Shown one piece after another: positions 3,190 through 53,861 of a stretch of DNA of 64,000 nucleotides (the stretch's first letter is position 1; every line of letters starts with the position of its first letter). The notes below the pieces were generated by a model. It had not been told where the DNA came from and did no database searches. It saw nothing but the letters and a program-made list of their open reading frames with translations. The translations under genes and the position numbers were made by a program. The stretch lies in the NCBI RefSeq assembly GCF_003334305.1, contig NZ_QOWS01000006.1; one strand, given 5' to 3'. Source of the stretch: Escherichia coli (GTDB lineage Bacteria > Pseudomonadota > Gammaproteobacteria > Enterobacterales > Enterobacteriaceae).

Positions 3190-3888
3190 CTAACCCGTAA
3201 TCCCCAATAGTGCCGAAGCACTCGCCTTACCGCTCAACAACTCATTGGTCTTACCCTGCCAGGCGATGCGCCCGTCGGCGACCACCACCGAGCGTGTGGC
3301 GATCCGCGCCGCATCTTCCACACTGTGCGACACCATCAATAGCGTCATTTTTTGCTGCTGGCAGCTCGTGCTCACCAGCGTCAGCATCTCCTGACGTAAC
3401 GCCGGATCGAGCGCAGAGAACGGTTCATCGAGCAATAAAATCGGCTGTTCGCGCACCAGACAACGCGCTAACGCCACGCGCTGTCGCTGACCGCCGGAAA
3501 GCTCGCCCGGTAACCGCGCCATTAAATTATCAATCCCCATCTGGCGGGCGATAGCGTGCATTTTCTCCTGCTGCGCCGCGTTCAGCTTCAATCCCGGATT
3601 AAGCCCCAGCCCGATGTTCTGCGCGACCGTCAGGTGGCTGAACAGGTTGTTCTCCTGAAACAGCATCGATACCGGACGGCGTGACGGCGGCGTCGTGGTG
3701 TGATCAACGCTGTCGATAGTCAGCGAACCGCTGGCTGGCGTCAGAAAACCGGCAATCAAATTCAGCAGGGTACTTTTACCCGCGCCGCTTGGCCCGAGGA
3801 TTGCCACCTGCTCGCCGCGTTCTACCGTTAAGCTAAAACGCATCGGCAAATGGTGATAAAGCCAGGTGATATCAGTCAGTTTTAACAT
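3190..3888 (-). CDS. thiQ: Thiamine ABC transporter ATP-binding protein ThiQ
   Basis: [48 protein letters not shown]... with Walker A and ABC signature LSGGQRQR. Start chosen at the internal ATG (3886-3888) rather than ORF-track 3909. Confidence 0.93.
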
Positions 3889-5482
3889 TTCGCCCCGGTA
3901 GTTTTTCAATCACGGTAAACAGCAGAAAACAGAGTAGTAGCAGAATTAACGCGGTGACCGCGCCGTCCTGGCTGCGATAGGAGCCAATTTGCTGGTAGAG
4001 ATAAAACGGCAGGGTACGGAAATCATCGTTACCGAACAACGCCACTACGCCAAAATCACCAATCGACAGCACGCAGGCAAAAGCCAGCGCCTGCGCCAGT
4101 GGACGTTTCAGGGCGTGCAGCTCGACCACTTTTAAGCGCGACCAGCCTTCAATGCCCAGCGACTGACACAATATACTGTAGCGGGCGGTGATATCGCGCA
4201 TCGGGTTTTCCAGTACTTTCAGCGCATAAGGGATCGCCATTAACGCATTGGTGAAAATCACAATGCCGTCAGCAGATTGTGGCAGGCCGATAGTGTTGTT
4301 GAGCAGTAAAAAGAAGCCGGTAGCCAGCACAATCCCCGGCATGGCGAGGATCAACATGCCGCTCATCTCCAGCGCCTGACCCGCCAGCATTTTCTGCCGC
4401 GCCCGCAGTTCGCGACTGCTCCATAGCAGCATCATGGTCAGCACTACGCACAATACACCTGCCGCCAGCGCAATACGCAACGAGGTCCACAGCGCCTGCC
4501 ACAGCACCGGTTGTGCCAGCACTTCCGGCAACTGGCGATTTACGCCATCGACGATCACCGCCAGCAACGGTGGCAGCAACAGCAGCAGCGCCAGCACTAT
4601 TAACACCGTGTCGCAAATGCGGCTATGCAGACGATCGTCCGGATCGCGCCAGCCTTGCAGCAGCGTGGTACCGGGCGCAATGGCCTTACTTAGTCGCTGA
4701 CTCAACAGCACCAGCCCAAGGCAACACACCATCTGGAGCAGCGCCAGCATCGCCGCGCGGGCAGGATCGTAGTCGTAACTCAGCGCCTGATAAATAGCCA
4801 GCTCGATAGTAGTTGCCTGCGGACCGCCGCCCAGCGATAGCACGGTGGCGAAGCTGGCGAAACAGAGCATAAAGATAAGCGCGGCAACCGGCGGGATTTG
4901 TCGCCGTAGCCACGGCCATTCGACGAAGCGGAAAAAATGCCAGCCGCGCATCCCAAGCTGGGCGGCAAGCTGACGTTGTTCGCCGGGAATGTTTTCCAGT
5001 GCCTGGAGTAATAAGCGGCTCGCCATCGGCAGATTAAAAAATACGTGCGCCAGCAAAATGCCTTGCAGGCCGTAGGGCGAAAAGGTCCACTCCAGACCGA
5101 GCGATTGGCAGAGCGATGCCAGCCAGCCCTGACGACCATAGACGCTAAGAATGCCGAAAACAGCAACTAGCACCGGGAGGATCAAGGTCATTGCGCACAG
5201 ACGCAACAGCGCCAGCCGACCCGGAAAGCGCCTGCGATAGAGGGCGCGGGCGAGGAATATCGCGGGTACGACAGAGAGTAGCGCCGAGAGAAACGCCTGC
5301 CAGAAGGAGAAGCGCACCACATGCCACAGGTAGCTGTCCTGCCAGACTGCCACCCAGTTACCCTGCGGCGCGTTCCACCACAGGGCGAGAAACGCCGCGA
5401 GCGCAACCGCTACCACCAGCGTGGCGGCGCTTACACCTGGAATTAACCAGCCGGGAATTAACGGCTGACGGCGCGTTGCCAT
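3872..5482 (-). CDS. thiP: Thiamine ABC transporter permease ThiP
   Basis: 536-aa polytopic membrane protein; overlaps thiQ start and thiB stop (operon thiBPQ). Confidence 0.93.
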
Positions 5483-6441
5483 TCGCTAATCCATGCCTGA
5501 CGTTGTGCCGCCACTTCAGCTGGTGTGAACTCCAGCGTGGTGGCCGGTTTGGTCAATTGTTCAAACCCGGCAGGCAGCGTGACATTTGCCACCGGATACA
5601 TCCAGTTACCGGTTGGGATCGCATTCTGAAAAGCCGGAGAAACCATAAACTGGAGGAATTTTTGCGCCAGCTCCGGCTGCTTGCTGGCAGCGGTGCGGGC
5701 GGCGACTTCCACCTGCAGATAGTGACCTTCGCTAAAGTTCGCGGCGGCGTAGTTATCTTTTTTCTCTTCGAGAATGTGATAAGCCGGAGAGGTGGTGTAA
5801 CTCAGTACCAGATCGCTTTCACCTTTTAAAAACAGGCCGTAGGCTTCGCTCCAGCCTTTGGTGACCGTGACGGTTTTCTTCGCCAGTTTTTGCCAGGCTT
5901 GTGGGGCGTCATCGCCATAGACTTTTTGCATCCACAACAGCAGGCCCAGCCCCGGCGTACTGGTGCGCGGATCCTGATAAATCACCCGCCAGTTTTGATC
6001 GCTCTCAACCAATTCTTTCAGGCTTTGCGGCGGGTTTTTCAGTTTGTTCTTGTCATAGACGAAGGCGAAATAGCCGTAATCAAACGGGACGAAAGTGTCA
6101 TTATTCCAGCCGCCGGGAACGTTAACGGCATCCGCTGCCACACCGCTTTTGGCAAATAGTCCGGTTTTACTGGCGGCGTCTAACAGATTGTTATCCAGCC
6201 CCAGCACCACATCGGCTTTACTATTTTTGCCTTCCATCCGTAGACGGTTGAGAAGCGAAACGCCATCTTCCAGCGCCACCAGTTTCAGTTCGCAGTTACA
6301 GTCGGCTTCAAAAGCTTTTTTGATCTTTGGACCAGGCCCCCAGTCGGCGGCGAAGGAATCGTAGGTATAAACAGTCAGAACGGGTTTAGCGAAAACGGGC
6401 GCTGTGCACAGCAACAGCAGGGGAAGACATTTTTTTAACAC
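5458..6441 (-). CDS. thiB: Thiamine/TPP periplasmic binding protein ThiB (TbpA)
   Basis: MLKKCLPLLLLCTAPVFAKPVLTVYTYDSFAADWGPGPKIKKAFEADC..., signal peptide plus SBP fold. Start at the internal ATG, not ORF-track 6453. Confidence 0.93.
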   Translation of the reverse strand: MLKKCLPLLLLCTAPVFAKPVLTVYTYDSFAADWGPGPKIKKAFEADCNCELKLVALEDGVSLLNRLRMEGKNSKADVVLGLDNNLLDAASKTGLFAKSGVAADAVNVPGGWNNDTFVPFDYGYFAFVYDKNKLKNPPQSLKELVESDQNWRVIYQDPRTSTPGLGLLLWMQKVYGDDAPQAWQKLAKKTVTVTKGWSEAYGLFLKGESDLVLSYTTSPAYHILEEKKDNYAAANFSEGHYLQVEVAARTAASKQPELAQKFLQFMVSPAFQNAIPTGNWMYPVANVTLPAGFEQLTKPATTLEFTPAEVAAQRQAWISEWQRAVSR

Positions 6442-6469
6442 TTTGCACCTCAAAAAAGAGTGGCAAAGG

Positions 6470-6595
6470 ACTTGAGAAGGAGCCTCAAATCCCTTCGCCG
6501 GCGTTATCCGGATCAGGTTCGACGGGTATTTTCTCAGCGCACGCGTTTGCGTGGCACCCCGTTGAGAACGGCGTTAGTGTAGTGATTTTGTTATC
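6470..6595 (-). promoter_or_regulatory. sroA: TPP riboswitch (THI-box) in the thiBPQ leader; corresponds to the SroA RNA fragment
   Basis: Minus-strand sequence ctgagaaaatacccgtcgaacctgatccggataacgccggcgaagg carries the conserved THI-box CUGAGA...ACCUGAUC-GGAUAAUGCC-GCGAAGG, directly upstream of thiB. Boundaries approximate. Confidence 0.85.
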
Positions 6596-6604
6596 TACCA
6601 GCAA

Positions 6605-8260
6605 TCATGGATCCGGCGGCGCAAACCACGCTGATTTAAAATCGAACCAGCCGAGGGTATTCATACGCAGGCCGCGCATACTGCGTTGTCCCTGAATGAT
6701 CAGCCAGTGGTGGATAAGCGGCACCATTGCTTTACTGGCGACCAGTTGCTGGCACCAGTTCGCCAGGTTCATTTCGCCATTGCGCCAGCGGGCGGCGTCG
6801 GCTTGCCAGTCGATCGGAATACAGTGTTGGAGCAGCGGCACCTCGCACAAGTGCGCGAACAGCGAAAAATCCAGCGGCAGCGTAAAGTTGGCGCTATTAA
6901 GCCAGATATCGCTCTCGATCTCTCCTTCATGCCACTGATCGTAGTCGATCTCTTTGATTTCCAGCGTGACCTGGTGGCTTGCCAGAATCTGCTGCATGAT
7001 CCCGGCAATCACCCGATGCTCACTGTGATCCTGATAAAAGGTCAGGGTGAGGCTTTCCAGACCAGCCGGTTTTTCGCTCTTTATGGTGCGGGCATGGTGC
7101 CAACGGGGGAGCAGTCCATAAGCCGGGAACCACAGTTGCTGGTACTGTTCCTCAGCGAAATAGACCAGATTAGTTGGAGAAAGCACATAGCTTACCCAGT
7201 CCCTGACTTGCTGATTCGCACCGCGATGGGTGCGGCTGTCGAATAGTAAATAGTAGCAACCTTCCTCCAGGCGGCTTTCAATCTCTTTTTCCTCGCCCTG
7301 TGGACCTTTTAGCATCAGACCTCCAGCTGGCTCGTCGGCAATTTCCGGCAGAACCCAGACGTTAACTTCATCGATTAATGCCCGGTAACCGAAGAAGTCA
7401 TCGAATGCCTGAATTTTCAGTTGATTGGTGGTGTTGCGGATCACCGCATACGGACCGGTGCCGATGGGATGGCTGGCAAAGTTACTGAGGGTTTCCCATT
7501 CGCGCGGCAGGATCATCGCCGGAACTTGCCCCAGCAGTAACGGTAACCAGCGGTCCGGTTGCGTGAGATGGATATCCAGCGTCCAGGGCGTCGGCGACAC
7601 AATGTCCGCAATATGCGAATAGAGCGGCAGCGTATTGATTCGTTTTAAAGAGGCGATCACGTCGTCCATTTCCAGTTCACGACCATGATGAAAATGGACT
7701 CCTGGACGCAAAAAGAAACGCCAGTGAAGCGGTGATATTTGCTGCCAGTGGTGGGCGATGTCTGCTTCCAGTTCCCCATTTTCCTCATTTATGCGCGTTA
7801 GCGAACTGAAGATTTGCCGGGCAATATGGGTTTCGGAACGGCGCAATGCGCTGCCAGGTAGCAGATTACGCAACGGACGATAGTAGAGCACGCGCAGGAT
7901 GTGCCGCCCCTGGCGGAAGCTGCGGCCCAGATGAGAAACCAGCATTTGCCGCACAGTCGCTTTGTCGCCAACCAACTGCACTAGTTGGTCGATACGATCC
8001 TGCTCCAGCAGGTCTTCCGCCCGCTGTTGCTGAAGCGCCAGCCCGGTATAGAGGAATGTCAGACGCGAGCGTTTACCACGCCCGACTTCCGCTTCCCACG
8101 TCAGCCAGCCGCGATCCTGCATGGTGTTGAGCAGGGTGCGCATATGACGACGCGAGCAGCTCAATAACGCTGCCAGTTCGTTGAGCGTTGTGTCCTGCGA
8201 TTTACCCTCGCAGCATTGCCACAGGCGGATGAACTGTTGTTGCAGACGAGCAGATGGCAT
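6605..8260 (-). CDS. sgrR: Sugar-phosphate stress transcriptional regulator SgrR
   Basis: 551-aa product [45 protein letters not shown]... (N-terminal HTH plus solute-binding-like domain); divergent from sgrS. Confidence 0.93.
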
Positions 8261-8327: not shown

Positions 8328-8554
8328 GATGAAGCAAGGGGGTGCCCCATGCGTCAGTTTTATCAGCACTATTTTACCGCGACAGCGAAGTTGTGCTGGT
8401 TGCGTTGGTTAAGCGTCCCACAACGATTAACCATGCTTGAAGGACTGATGCAGTGGGATGACCGCAATTCTGAAAGTTGACTTGCCTGCATCATGTGTGA
8501 CTGAGTATTGGTGTAAAATCACCCGCCAGCAGATTATACCTGCTGGTTTTTTTT
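8328..8554 (+). ncRNA. sgrS: SgrS small RNA (dual-function: base-pairing sRNA plus sgrT mRNA)
   Basis: Divergent from sgrR; contains the sgrT ORF; 3' end has the conserved seed region (gtgtgactgagtattggtg) and an intrinsic terminator ccagcag-attatac-ctgctgg followed by an 8-T run (8526-8554). The 5' end is from memory of the annotation. Confidence 0.85.
8349..8480 (+). CDS. sgrT: SgrT, 43-aa inhibitor of glucose transporter PtsG, encoded within SgrS
   Basis: ATG at 8349 gives MRQFYQHYFTATAKLCWLRWLSVPQRLTMLEGLMQWDDRNSES. Confidence 0.85.
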   Translation: MRQFYQHYFTATAKLCWLRWLSVPQRLTMLEGLMQWDDRNSES

Positions 8555-14533: not shown

Positions 14534-14564
14534 AAAAAAACCCGCGCAATGGCGCGGGTTTTTT
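14534..14564 (-). terminator. leu operon attenuator (intrinsic terminator between leuL and leuA)
   Basis: On the transcribed minus strand: hairpin cccgcgccattgcgcggg followed by a 7-U run; lies between the leader peptide stop and leuA start. Confidence 0.85.
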
Positions 14565-14582
14565 GTTTGACTGCGTGCTGGC

Positions 14583-14669
14583 TTAATGCTGGATGCCGCT
14601 CACTCGTCTACCGCGCAAAGAAGATGCGTTTAGTAGTAGTAGACCGATAAAGCGAACGATGTGAGTCAT
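14583..14669 (-). CDS. leuL: leu operon leader peptide LeuL (28 aa, four consecutive Leu codons)
   Basis: [28 protein letters not shown]; the four Leu are consecutive CUA codons (complement of tagtagtagtag at 14631-14642). Confidence 0.9.
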
Positions 14670-14774
14670 TAAATCAGCTCCAGATGAATGCGATATGCTT
14701 TTAGAGTTACTGGATACAAAAACGGATGTCAACCCTGACGCAATAAAAACGTCCCGCCAGCGTGAGTTCTGCAT

Positions 14775-34946: not shown

Positions 34947-36205
34947 TCAAGGCGACGGACAGAAAACTGGTAGTAGGACTGGAGATTGGTACCGCGAAGG
35001 TTGCCGCTTTAGTAGGGGAAGTTCTGCCCGACGGTATGGTCAATATCATTGGCGTGGGCAGCTGCCCGTCACGTGGTATGGATAAAGGCGGGGTGAACGA
35101 CCTCGAATCCGTGGTCAAGTGCGTACAACGCGCCATTGACCAGGCAGAATTGATGGCAGATTGTCAGATCTCTTCGGTATATCTGGCGCTTTCTGGTAAG
35201 CACATCAGCTGCCAGAATGAAATTGGTATGGTGCCTATTTCTGAAGAAGAAGTGACGCAAGAAGATGTGGAAAACGTCGTCCATACCGCGAAATCGGTGC
35301 GTGTGCGCGATGAACATCGTGTGCTGCATGTGATCCCGCAAGAGTATGCGATTGACTATCAGGAAGGGATCAAGAATCCGGTAGGACTTTCGGGCGTGCG
35401 GATGCAGGCAAAAGTGCACCTGATCACATGTCACAACGATATGGCGAAAAACATCGTCAAAGCGGTTGAACGTTGTGGGCTGAAAGTTGACCAACTGATA
35501 TTTGCCGGACTGGCATCAAGTTATTCGGTATTGACGGAAGATGAACGTGAACTGGGTGTCTGCGTCGTCGATATCGGTGGTGGTACAATGGATATCGCCG
35601 TTTATACCGGTGGGGCATTGCGCCACACTAAGGTAATTCCTTATGCTGGCAATGTCGTGACCAGTGATATCGCTTACGCCTTTGGCACGCCGCCAAGCGA
35701 CGCCGAAGCGATTAAAGTTCGCCACGGTTGTGCGCTGGGTTCCATCGTTGGAAAAGATGAGAGCGTGGAAGTGCCGAGCGTAGGCGGTCGTCCGCCACGG
35801 AGTCTGCAACGTCAGACCCTGGCAGAGGTGATCGAGCCGCGCTATACCGAGCTGCTCAACCTGGTCAACGAAGAGATATTGCAGTTGCAGGAAAAGCTTC
35901 GCCAACAAGGGGTTAAACATCACCTGGCGGCAGGCATTGTATTAACCGGTGGCGCAGCGCAGATCGAAGGTCTTGCAGCCTGTGCTCAGCGCGTGTTTCA
36001 TACGCAAGTGCGTATCGGCGCGCCGCTGAACATTACCGGTTTAACGGATTATGCTCAGGAGCCGTATTATTCGACGGCGGTGGGATTGCTTCACTATGGG
36101 AAAGAGTCACATCTTAACGGTGAAGCTGAAGTAGAAAAACGTGTTACAGCATCAGTTGGCTCGTGGATCAAGCGACTCAATAGTTGGCTGCGAAAAGAGT
36201 TTTAA
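34943..36205 (+). CDS. ftsA: Cell division protein FtsA (actin-like ATPase)
   Basis: 420 aa; [57 protein letters not shown]... Confidence 0.97.
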
Positions 36206-36265
36206 TTTTTATGAGGCCGACGATGATTACGGCCTCAGGCGACAGGCACAAATCGGAGAGAAACT

Positions 36266-37417
36266 ATGTTTGAACCAATGGAACTTACCAATGACGCGGT
36301 GATTAAAGTCATCGGCGTCGGCGGCGGCGGCGGTAATGCTGTTGAACACATGGTGCGCGAGCGCATTGAAGGTGTTGAATTCTTCGCGGTAAATACCGAT
36401 GCACAAGCGCTGCGTAAAACAGCGGTTGGACAGACGATTCAAATCGGTAGCGGTATCACCAAAGGACTGGGCGCTGGCGCTAATCCAGAAGTTGGCCGCA
36501 ATGCGGCTGATGAGGATCGCGATGCATTGCGTGCGGCGCTGGAAGGTGCAGACATGGTCTTTATTGCTGCGGGTATGGGTGGTGGTACCGGTACAGGTGC
36601 AGCACCAGTCGTCGCTGAAGTGGCAAAAGATTTGGGTATCCTGACCGTTGCTGTCGTCACTAAGCCTTTCAACTTTGAAGGCAAGAAGCGTATGGCATTC
36701 GCGGAGCAGGGGATCACTGAACTGTCCAAGCATGTGGACTCTCTGATCACTATCCCGAACGACAAACTGCTGAAAGTTCTGGGCCGCGGTATCTCCCTGC
36801 TGGATGCGTTTGGCGCAGCGAACGATGTACTGAAAGGCGCTGTGCAAGGTATCGCTGAACTGATTACTCGTCCGGGTTTGATGAACGTGGACTTTGCAGA
36901 CGTACGCACCGTAATGTCTGAGATGGGCTACGCAATGATGGGTTCTGGCGTGGCGAGCGGTGAAGACCGTGCGGAAGAAGCTGCTGAAATGGCTATCTCT
37001 TCTCCGCTGCTGGAAGATATCGACCTGTCTGGCGCGCGCGGCGTGCTGGTTAACATCACGGCGGGCTTCGACCTGCGTCTGGATGAGTTCGAAACGGTAG
37101 GTAACACCATCCGTGCATTTGCTTCCGACAACGCGACTGTGGTTATCGGTACTTCTCTTGACCCGGATATGAATGACGAGCTGCGCGTAACCGTTGTTGC
37201 GACAGGTATCGGCATGGACAAACGTCCTGAAATCACTCTGGTGACCAATAAGCAGGTTCAGCAGCCAGTGATGGATCGCTACCAGCAGCATGGGATGGCT
37301 CCGCTGACCCAGGAGCAGAAGCCGGTTGCTAAAGTCGTGAATGACAATGCGCCGCAAACTGCGAAAGAGCCGGATTATCTGGATATCCCAGCATTCCTGC
37401 GTAAGCAAGCTGATTAA
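36266..37417 (+). CDS. ftsZ: Cell division GTPase FtsZ
   Basis: 383 aa; tubulin signature GGGTGTG (…[20 protein letters not shown]…). Confidence 0.98.
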
Positions 37418-39239: not shown

Positions 39240-41945
39240 ATGCTAATCAAATTGTTAACTAAAGTTTTCGGTAGTCGTAACGATCGCACCCTGCGCCGGA
39301 TGCGCAAAGTGGTCAACATCATCAATGCCATGGAACCGGAGATGGAAAAACTCTCCGACGAAGAACTGAAAGGGAAAACCGCAGAGTTTCGTGCACGTCT
39401 GGAAAAAGGCGAAGTGCTGGAAAATCTGATCCCGGAAGCTTTCGCCGTGGTACGTGAGGCAAGTAAGCGCGTCTTTGGTATGCGTCACTTCGACGTTCAG
39501 TTACTCGGCGGTATGGTTCTTAACGAACGCTGCATCGCCGAAATGCGTACCGGTGAAGGTAAAACCCTGACCGCAACGCTGCCTGCTTACCTGAACGCAC
39601 TAACCGGTAAAGGCGTGCACGTAGTTACCGTCAACGACTACCTGGCGCAACGTGACGCCGAAAACAACCGTCCGCTGTTTGAATTCCTTGGCCTGACTGT
39701 CGGTATCAACCTGCCGGGCATGCCAGCACCGGCAAAGCGCGAAGCTTACGCATCTGACATCACTTACGGTACGAACAACGAATACGGCTTTGACTACCTG
39801 CGCGACAATATGGCGTTCAGCCCTGAAGAACGTGTACAGCGTAAACTGCACTATGCGCTGGTGGACGAAGTGGACTCCATCCTGATCGATGAAGCGCGTA
39901 CACCGCTGATCATTTCCGGCCCGGCAGAAGACAGCTCGGAAATGTATAAACGCGTGAATAAAATTATTCCGCACCTGATCCGTCAGGAAAAAGAAGACTC
40001 CGAAACCTTCCAGGGCGAAGGCCACTTCTCGGTGGACGAAAAATCTCGCCAGGTGAACCTGACCGAACGTGGTCTGGTGCTGATTGAAGAACTGCTGGTG
40101 AAAGAGGGCATCATGGATGAAGGGGAGTCTCTGTACTCTCCGGCCAACATCATGCTGATGCACCACGTAACGGCGGCGCTGCGCGCTCATGCGCTGTTTA
40201 CCCGCGACGTCGACTACATCGTTAAAGATGGTGAAGTTATCATCGTTGACGAACACACCGGTCGTACCATGCAGGGCCGTCGCTGGTCCGATGGTCTGCA
40301 CCAGGCTGTGGAAGCGAAAGAAGGTGTGCAGATCCAGAACGAAAACCAAACGCTGGCTTCGATCACCTTCCAGAACTACTTCCGTCTGTATGAAAAACTG
40401 GCGGGGATGACCGGTACTGCTGATACCGAAGCTTTCGAATTTAGCTCCATCTACAAGCTGGATACCGTCGTTGTTCCGACCAACCGTCCAATGATTCGTA
40501 AAGATCTGCCGGACCTGGTCTACATGACTGAAGCGGAAAAAATTCAGGCGATCATTGAAGATATCAAAGAACGTACTGCGAAAGGCCAGCCGGTGCTGGT
40601 GGGTACTATCTCCATCGAAAAATCGGAGCTGGTGTCAAACGAACTGACCAAAGCCGGTATTAAGCACAACGTCCTGAACGCCAAATTCCACGCCAACGAA
40701 GCGGCGATTGTTGCTCAGGCAGGTTATCCGGCTGCGGTGACTATCGCGACCAATATGGCGGGTCGTGGTACAGATATTGTGCTCGGTGGTAGCTGGCAGG
40801 CAGAAGTTGCCGCGCTGGAAAATCCGACCGTAGAGCAAATTGAAAAAATTAAAGCCGACTGGCAGGTACGTCACGATGCGGTACTGGAAGCAGGTGGCCT
40901 GCATATCATCGGTACCGAGCGTCACGAATCCCGTCGTATCGATAACCAGTTGCGCGGTCGTTCTGGTCGTCAGGGGGATGCTGGTTCTTCCCGTTTCTAC
41001 CTGTCGATGGAAGATGCGCTGATGCGTATTTTTGCTTCCGACCGAGTATCCGGCATGATGCGTAAACTGGGTATGAAGCCAGGCGAAGCCATTGAACACC
41101 CGTGGGTGACTAAAGCGATTGCCAACGCCCAGCGTAAAGTTGAAAGCCGTAACTTCGACATTCGTAAGCAACTGCTGGAATATGATGACGTGGCTAACGA
41201 TCAGCGTCGCGCCATTTACTCCCAGCGTAACGAACTGCTGGATGTCAGCGATGTGAGCGAAACCATCAACAGCATTCGTGAAGATGTGTTCAAAGCGACC
41301 ATTGATGCCTACATTCCGCCACAGTCACTGGAAGAAATGTGGGATATTCCGGGGCTGCAGGAACGTCTGAAGAACGATTTCGACCTCGATTTGCCAATTG
41401 CCGAGTGGCTGGATAAAGAACCAGAACTGCATGAAGAGACGCTGCGTGAGCGAATTCTGGCGCAGTCCATCGAAGTGTATCAGCGTAAAGAAGAAGTGGT
41501 TGGTGCTGAGATGATGCGTCACTTCGAGAAAGGCGTCATGCTGCAAACGCTTGACTCCCTGTGGAAAGAGCACCTGGCAGCGATGGACTATCTGCGTCAG
41601 GGTATCCACCTGCGTGGCTATGCACAGAAAGATCCGAAGCAGGAATACAAACGTGAATCGTTCTCCATGTTTGCAGCGATGCTGGAGTCGTTAAAATATG
41701 AAGTTATCAGCACGCTGAGCAAAGTCCAGGTACGTATGCCTGAAGAGGTTGAGGAGCTGGAACAACAGCGTCGTATGGAAGCCGAGCGTTTAGCGCAAAT
41801 GCAGCAGCTTAGCCATCAGGATGACGACTCTGCAGCCGCAGCTGCACTGGCGGCGCAAACCGGTGAGCGCAAAGTAGGACGTAACGATCCTTGCCCGTGC
41901 GGTTCTGGTAAAAAATACAAGCAGTGCCATGGTCGCCTGCAATAA
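39240..41945 (+). CDS. secA: Preprotein translocase ATPase SecA
   Basis: 901 aa; [47 protein letters not shown]...; C-terminal zinc-binding [14 protein letters not shown]. Confidence 0.98.
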
Positions 41946-41962
41946 AAGCTAACAGTTGAAGT

Positions 41963-41991
41963 AAAAGGCGCAGGATTCTGCGCCTTTTTTA
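41963..41991 (+). terminator. Intrinsic terminator-like hairpin after secA, upstream of mutT
   Basis: ggcgcag-gattc-tgcgcc followed by a T6 run, 14 nt before the mutT ATG. Confidence 0.65.
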
Positions 41992-42004: not shown

Positions 42005-42480
<476 letters not shown>

Positions 42481-53701: not shown

Positions 53702-53861
53702 TGATTTTTCTGGTAAAAATTATCCAGAAGATGTTGTAAATCAAGCGCATATAAAAGCGCGGCAACTAAACGTAGAACCTGTCTTATTGAGCTTTCCGGC
53801 GAGAGTTCAATGGGACAGGTTCCAGAAAACTCAACGTTATTAGATAGATAAGGAATAACCC

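Follow-up and report, generated by a model that had tools for sequence, protein, structure and literature searches.

The thiB (tbpA) TPP riboswitch in the thiBPQ leader of an Escherichia coli chromosome

Identity and genomic setting of the element upstream of thiB

The element upstream of thiB in the Escherichia coli DNA analysed here is, with very little room for doubt, the thiB (tbpA) TPP riboswitch, an OFF switch located in the 128-nt leader of the thiBPQ operon. It ties the uptake of thiamine and TPP to the intracellular TPP level. E. coli has three TPP riboswitches, and the thiBPQ leader is one of them. All positions given below are those of the window, by which we mean the whole stretch of 64,000 nucleotides that was analysed. 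The riboswitch is already known, being annotated in RefSeq and dissected in several recent papers, and the value of the present analysis is that of a positive control rather than of new biology: a reading of the sequence alone had located the aptamer to within a few bases of where the covariance model puts it.

This initial annotation had proposed a TPP riboswitch, or THI-box, on the minus strand just upstream of thiB, and had named a scan of that strand with the Rfam TPP covariance model as the way to check it. The scan with cmscan returned a match to the TPP family (RF00059) on the minus strand at 6571-6472, with a score of 66.1 bits against a gathering score of 54.3. The match spans model positions 1-105 of 105 without truncation, and its E-value was 2.8e-12 in a scan of 2 kb (5500-7500) and 8.9e-11 in a scan of the whole window. 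When all 4,227 Rfam families were searched with E-values up to 1, this TPP element was the sole match in 5500-7500, and the plus strand of that region yielded no Rfam match. A second TPP element was not found in the 64-kb window at Rfam gathering thresholds, and no open reading frame of at least 50 amino acids overlaps 6470-6595 on either strand. The latter interval, in which the riboswitch had been placed, does contain the aptamer; its outer part (6572-6595), however, lies upstream of the transcription start and does not belong to the riboswitch, and beyond the other boundary the functional element takes in the expression platform, as far as the GUG codon of thiB (6441-6439).

To describe the aptamer, the structure line of the model was mapped onto the window sequence. 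Of the 23 model pairs that are present, 22 are standard pairs, the lone exception being G6514-A6495 at the base of P4, which is identical in K-12. All five helices of the TPP model can be formed on the minus strand according to the model pair list, namely P1 (6566-6562 with 6488-6484), P2 (6561-6556 with 6529-6523), P3 (6555-6549 with 6544-6537), P4 (6517-6514 with 6495-6492) and P5 (6511-6508 with 6501-6498), while the P3a stem, which is optional in the model, is missing. The THI-box core (6490-6537) comprises CUGAGA (6537-6532), ACCC and GAACCUGAUCCGGAUAACGCCGGCGAAGGGA, as defined by the upper-case consensus matches in the cmscan alignment. CUGAGA, which forms J3/2 in the pyrimidine-sensor arm, carries no substitution, and the same holds for the pyrophosphate-sensor arm ACCUGAUC...GCG.AGGGA at 6518-6490.

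The window is a stretch of E. coli chromosome that is collinear with K-12 MG1655, such that a K-12 coordinate equals the window position plus 69039. Within it, the element sits between sgrR, as the upstream open reading frame encodes SgrR, and an intact thiB-thiP-thiQ operon on the same strand. The gene for the periplasmic thiamine-binding protein, thiB (tbpA; minus strand, 5458-6441), has a GUG start, is annotated in RefSeq and encodes a protein that matches the equivalog model TIGR01276 with 645 bits (cut-off 317). It is followed by thiP, encoding the permease (minus strand, 3872-5482; NF006953, equivalog, 1191.7 bits against a cut-off of 970), and by thiQ, encoding the ATPase (minus strand, 3190-3888; NF008039, equivalog, 450 bits against a cut-off of 298). 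The distance from the P1 end of the aptamer to the start of thiB is 42 nt (6483-6442). These three equivalog matches, together with the TPP riboswitch that RefSeq annotates at the site, agree with the proposal that the transporter operon is under TPP control. The thiB and thiP reading frames overlap by 25 nt (5458-5482) and those of thiP and thiQ by 17 nt (3872-3888), which suggests translational coupling, and occlusion of the thiB start could in this way propagate down the operon.

A query of 451 bases around the site was 100% identical to many RefSeq genomes, in which sgrR, the riboswitch (as "TPP riboswitch") and thiB are annotated. Relative to MG1655 there are 21 substitutions over the 501 bases compared, and the leader holds only two of these (6548 and 6547). 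As a result, the apical loop of P3 reads AAAC in the window and GUAC in K-12. No pair is affected by this difference, which is not predicted to alter the structure. The AAAC allele is common, given the full identity of the 451-base query to many RefSeq genomes. In all other respects the element corresponds to the published thiB/tbpA riboswitch of K-12 (PMC10578472, PMC11487190, PMC8609307): the locus, the sgrR and thiB flanks, the transcription start and the GUG codon are the same, as are the P1, anti-P1 and sequestering segments.

We also considered that the match might reflect a chance resemblance or a decayed, non-functional relic. The E-value and the score above the gathering threshold speak against this reading, as do the intact core motifs and helices, the intact thiBPQ genes downstream, the conservation of the leader in E. 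coli and in other Enterobacterales, and the direct experiments on a sequence that is just two loop bases away (PMC10578472, PMC11487190). With the scores, the genomic setting and the experiments all pointing the same way, a chance match can be excluded, and we regard the probability of this explanation, relic included, as practically negligible. No evidence that contradicts the identification as the thiBPQ TPP riboswitch was found.

Six further Rfam families had matches above the gathering score elsewhere in the window, namely SgrS (228.8 bits), the leucine operon leader, PssrA, STnc40, naRNA4 and tp2, at 8328-8554 (+), 14534-14683 (-), 36185-36274 (+), 41921-41990 (+), 42394-42471 (+) and 53746-53859 (-), respectively. 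The name PssrA denotes in Rfam a plasmid-encoded Shigella sRNA, while the match observed here is on chromosomal sequence.

Leader architecture and the translational switch

The 5' end of sroA in MG1655 (75608) maps to the G at 6569 on the minus strand, which we take as the transcription start. With nucleotide 1 at 6569, the mutated positions G35, G121 (Shine-Dalgarno sequence) and U130 (start codon) of PMC11487190 fall on G6535, G6449 and U6440, and these are located within CUGAGA, the Shine-Dalgarno sequence and the GUG codon, respectively. In Salmonella, the start determined by 5' RACE is 129 nt upstream of the start codon (PMC3511261). The mapped start, together with the conservation of the hexamer itself, points to a putative -10 hexamer TACACT (minus strand, 6576-6581). 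TACA(A/C)T is present 5-6 nt upstream of the first transcribed G in most of 20 Enterobacterales leaders, and TAGAAT in two of them. A weak putative -35 hexamer, TTGCTG (minus strand, 6599-6604), is separated from the -10 hexamer by a 17-nt spacer and directly follows the sgrR stop codon (6607-6605). A consensus promoter scan of 6300-6800 gave no hit at a threshold of 9 of 12; the thiBPQ promoter was missed because the scan needs nine of 12 consensus matches.

Downstream of the aptamer, the leader encodes mutually exclusive P1, anti-P1 and Shine-Dalgarno-sequestering pairings, as in the published thiB model. The linker arm UCUCA (6477-6473) is identical to the P1 5' strand (6567-6563), an identity that has been described as that of nts 95-99 and 5-9 (PMC10578472). 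An anti-P1, or antisequestering, hairpin is predicted at 6465-6495 (minus strand) in the unconstrained fold, with -15.5 kcal/mol for the isolated hairpin. It consists of 10 bp between GGAUUUGAGG (6492-6483) and UCUCAAGUCC (6477-6468) around the loop CUCCU, and it can be extended by the three pairs G6493-U6467, A6494-U6466 and A6495-U6465. This hairpin overlaps P1 at 6488-6484 and the sequestering stem at 6468-6465. The sequestering stem itself (minus strand, 6441-6468; -11.6 kcal/mol for the isolated hairpin) was present in all ViennaRNA folds and is formed by CUUUGC (6468-6463) with GCAAAG (6446-6441) and by CUC (6460-6458) with GAG (6451-6449). In this way it pairs the GAG of the Shine-Dalgarno sequence GAGG (minus strand, 6448-6451), which is 6 nt upstream of the GUG, as well as the G of the start codon.

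From these elements the following course of events would be expected. Transcription would begin at G6569, and the aptamer (P1-P5, 6566-6484) would fold while the RNA is being made. If TPP is bound before RNA polymerase has left the leader, P1 would be locked, and the hairpin 6468-6441 could then pair the GAGG and the G of the GUG codon, so that 30S subunits would be unable to start translation of thiB. [quoted passage not shown] This would both break the aptamer and take up the 5' arm of the sequestering stem, leaving the ribosome-binding site open and allowing the transporter to be made.

Published experiments on the K-12 sequence can be placed on the window base by base. The numbering of Berman et al. 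(PMC10578472) starts at window position 6571, which puts nts 5-9 and 85-89, the two strands of P1, at 6567-6563 and 6487-6483, and nts 95-99 of the linker at 6477-6473. In Chauvier et al. (PMC8609307) and in Grondin et al. (PMC11487190), nucleotide 1 is window position 6569. The published numbering maps exactly onto the window bases, including G17 (PMC10578472) and the aforementioned G35, G121 and U130 (PMC11487190). Point mutants in the aptamer or the binding site of the K-12 sequence were constitutively ON, weakening of the sequestering stem by mutation abolished the TPP response, and deletion or randomisation of nts 95-99 locked the switch OFF (PMC10578472). Mutations favouring P1 biased the switch to OFF and those favouring the antisequestering stem to ON (PMC10578472). 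Toeprints revealed that TPP blocks 30S binding, and sensing was several-fold more efficient when it took place cotranscriptionally (PMC8609307, PMC11487190). Complexes at position 136 (window 6434) have lost the response, as anti-P1 is already in place by then (PMC8609307, PMC11487190). Lastly, the G121C mutation in the Shine-Dalgarno sequence (window 6449) destroys expression (PMC11487190).

TPP binding and the resulting change in expression have thus been documented for the K-12 sequence, which is two loop bases away from that of the window (PMC10578472, PMC11487190, PMC8609307). These experiments demonstrate TPP-dependent translational repression by this architecture, with sensing during transcription, and the same behaviour is to be expected of the window allele from its sequence. 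The thiB riboswitch serves as a model of how translational riboswitches sense their ligand cotranscriptionally.

We searched for an opening of the Shine-Dalgarno sequence in the ligand-free state by computing ViennaRNA equilibrium folds of 6425-6569 for four states: unconstrained, with the aptamer enforced, with anti-P1 enforced and with the extended anti-P1 enforced. The Shine-Dalgarno hairpin was closed in all four, with probabilities of being unpaired of at most 0.08 for G6451, A6450 and G6449 in each state. The unconstrained minimum-energy fold holds anti-P1 and the sequestering hairpin together. Simple thermodynamic modelling fails to reproduce the ON state and is uninformative for this kinetic switch. 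The closed Shine-Dalgarno sequence in these equilibrium folds is compatible with the published kinetic model and lends it no independent support.

[quoted passage not shown] It differs in the operon that it controls (thiMD, encoding salvage kinases) and in the sequence of its expression platform. Moreover, 34 codons are needed for RNA-level control by Rho in thiM, whereas 12 codons are reported for tbpA (PMC11487190).

Control at the mRNA level and the SroA RNA

An alternative to the translational switch described above is that the riboswitch acts mainly on the level of the mRNA, through premature Rho termination or RNase E decay, with translational occlusion being secondary. Arguments for such a mode of action come from transcriptional lacZ fusions with 12 thiB codons, the activity of which fell 1.6- to 3.9-fold with TPP, and from the start-codon mutant U130A, which was still repressed 2.4-fold at the RNA level (PMC11487190). 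In addition, the short and abundant SroA species does not extend beyond 6477, a position within the leader. Against this stands that no intrinsic-terminator-like site, i.e. a hairpin followed by a U-run, was found on the minus strand in 6300-6800, and that single-round in vitro transcription gave full-length product only at all TPP concentrations, which means that there was no intrinsic termination (PMC10578472). Bicyclomycin, furthermore, had no effect on thiB repression (PMC10578472). This sets thiB apart from thiC, which has the same ligand and an aptamer of the same family, also senses TPP during transcription and likewise ends its sensing window through an anti-P1 stem, but which is larger and employs Rho-dependent termination and a regulatory pause at the start codon. 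The Shine-Dalgarno mutant of tbpA also loses RNA-level regulation (PMC11487190), which implies a dependence of that regulation on ribosome binding. The result of Grondin et al. with the 12-codon fusion conflicts with that of Berman et al., a discrepancy that its authors left open (PMC11487190). Whether there is an additional TPP-dependent drop in the mRNA level is accordingly disputed, with one laboratory reporting it and another seeing none. In view of these data we consider it unlikely that the mRNA level is the main point of control, and we favour repression at translation initiation as the main mode of action.

The initial annotation had also placed the processed SroA fragment at this site. 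The sroA coordinates of MG1655 (b4762, 75516-75608) indeed map to 6477-6569 of the window (minus strand, 93 nt), which covers the aptamer and the beginning of the linker. The fragment may result from processing or from pausing, termination or decay. SroA, or sYJ20 in Salmonella, is an RNA species that has been seen on blots and in cDNA libraries; it has no separate gene. One may ask whether the 93-nt RNA (6569-6477) is itself a functional trans-acting sRNA, with the leader doubling as its gene. If this were true, the leader would have a second, thiamine-independent function. In line with this idea, the MG1655 annotation lists sroA as an ncRNA gene. Salmonella sYJ20 accumulates upon exposure to tigecycline or tetracycline while the tbpA mRNA is unchanged, and its deletion lowers viability under tigecycline, a defect that is complemented by a plasmid copy (PMC3511261). 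This evidence stems from a single Salmonella study, however, in which no induction was observed in E. coli (PMC3511261). No SroA target or pairing region is known, a stable and tightly folded aptamer would be expected to survive as a decay or pause remnant, and the window holds nothing that bears on a function of SroA in trans. Taken together, a trans-acting function of SroA seems improbable to us, more so than predominant control at the mRNA level. That SroA is more than a remnant of the riboswitch and is produced deliberately as a trans-acting RNA, as has been suggested for Salmonella sYJ20 in antibiotic tolerance, we deem if anything a shade less probable still.

Conservation of the leader within and beyond E. 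coli

Within E. coli, the 147-base leader (window 6425-6571) was found as a single copy, at an identity of at least 95%, in 5,399 of the 5,426 complete genomes searched. On three occasions among these 5,399 matches, the record was typed as plasmid instead of chromosome.

To look at conservation of the structure, 19 Enterobacterales leaders were aligned, a set that is shallow and biased, having been collected with a pattern derived from the aptamer. The alignment included the leaders of the window, K-12, E. albertii and several Enterobacter, one each of Klebsiella, Leclercia, Pseudescherichia and Superficieibacter, and one each of Pectobacterium, Brenneria, Photorhabdus, Yersinia and Morganella. 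The THI-box core was invariant in these 19 leaders, which were themselves chosen by a pattern from that core. Within the same pattern-selected set, P3 displayed compensatory changes at four of its seven pairs, while P1, P2, P4 and P5 were invariant. The outer six pairs of the sequestering stem were invariant as well, and its inner pairs varied, with one compensatory pair. For anti-P1, standard pairs were present in 87.9% of the cells of the alignment and the changes were one-sided only; a covariation test over the 19 leaders detected no compensatory changes in anti-P1 and did not exceed the shuffles. Anti-P1 is conserved without covarying, since the aptamer dictates the 5' arm of the hairpin. 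Given this lack of compensation in anti-P1 and the invariant outer part of the sequestering stem, the support for the expression platform is therefore one of conservation and not of covariation. The direct observations of the present analysis are the aptamer match and its location, as well as the alternative pairings that the sequence encodes and the degree to which these are conserved.

We also scanned species-representative genomes with one pattern for the aptamer core in which P5 was left free. This yielded at least 120 loci from many phyla, and among the matches listed a ThiB homologue was encoded just downstream of the motif in at least 33 loci. Ten spirochaete loci (L012, L013, L016, L017, L035, L038, L044, L071, L081 and L090) have a core-pattern TPP aptamer directly upstream of genes for ThiB homologues, and the ThiB homologues of Spirochaetota, from genomes and MAGs, are 33-47% identical to the window protein. 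The association of the aptamer with ThiB therefore extends well beyond the Proteobacteria.

In about 1,047 of 5,400 complete E. coli genomes, the 451-base query was split at a junction at 6598-6606. Two of these genomes, those of the apple-cider isolate SRCC 1675 and of a chicken isolate, were examined and were found to have an islet of ∼1 kb between the sgrR stop codon and the thiB promoter. The islet (L003 2497-3535; L004 2497-3535) carries the gene for the type III effector EspY2 in the opposite orientation, and setA is absent from both strains. The putative -35 hexamer TTGCTG is retained on the thiB side in these espY2-islet strains; the window is K-12-like and islet-free. A different situation was observed in E. 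coli UTME-10, a pig isolate (L005 3647-5751), where only the sgrR part of the query matches and ∼2.1 kb without an annotated feature separates sgrR from a thiP pseudogene that lacks its N-terminus. It thus appears that this strain has had the riboswitch, thiB and the 5' end of thiP replaced or deleted.

Outside E. coli, the thiB aptamers of Kluyvera (L086 4025-4199) and Brenneria (L096 2728-2907) contain a large insertion in P3. In Kluyvera, a loss of the 5' half of the aptamer had been suspected from a failed anchor search. This was rejected, as there is a full-length Rfam TPP match, which at 175 nt is longer than the E. coli match of 100 nt and exceeds the gathering threshold all the same. 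In the leaders of Photorhabdus (L015 8693-8876), Yersinia (L043 657-847), Morganella (L083 2374-2558) and Pectobacterium (L093 5695-5845), an additional 10-50 nucleotides separate the P1 3' strand from the conserved CUCA(A/G) of the anti-P1 arm. The anti-P1 loop in these four leaders would therefore be far longer than the 5 nt of E. coli, and under the published kinetic model strand displacement could then be timed differently.
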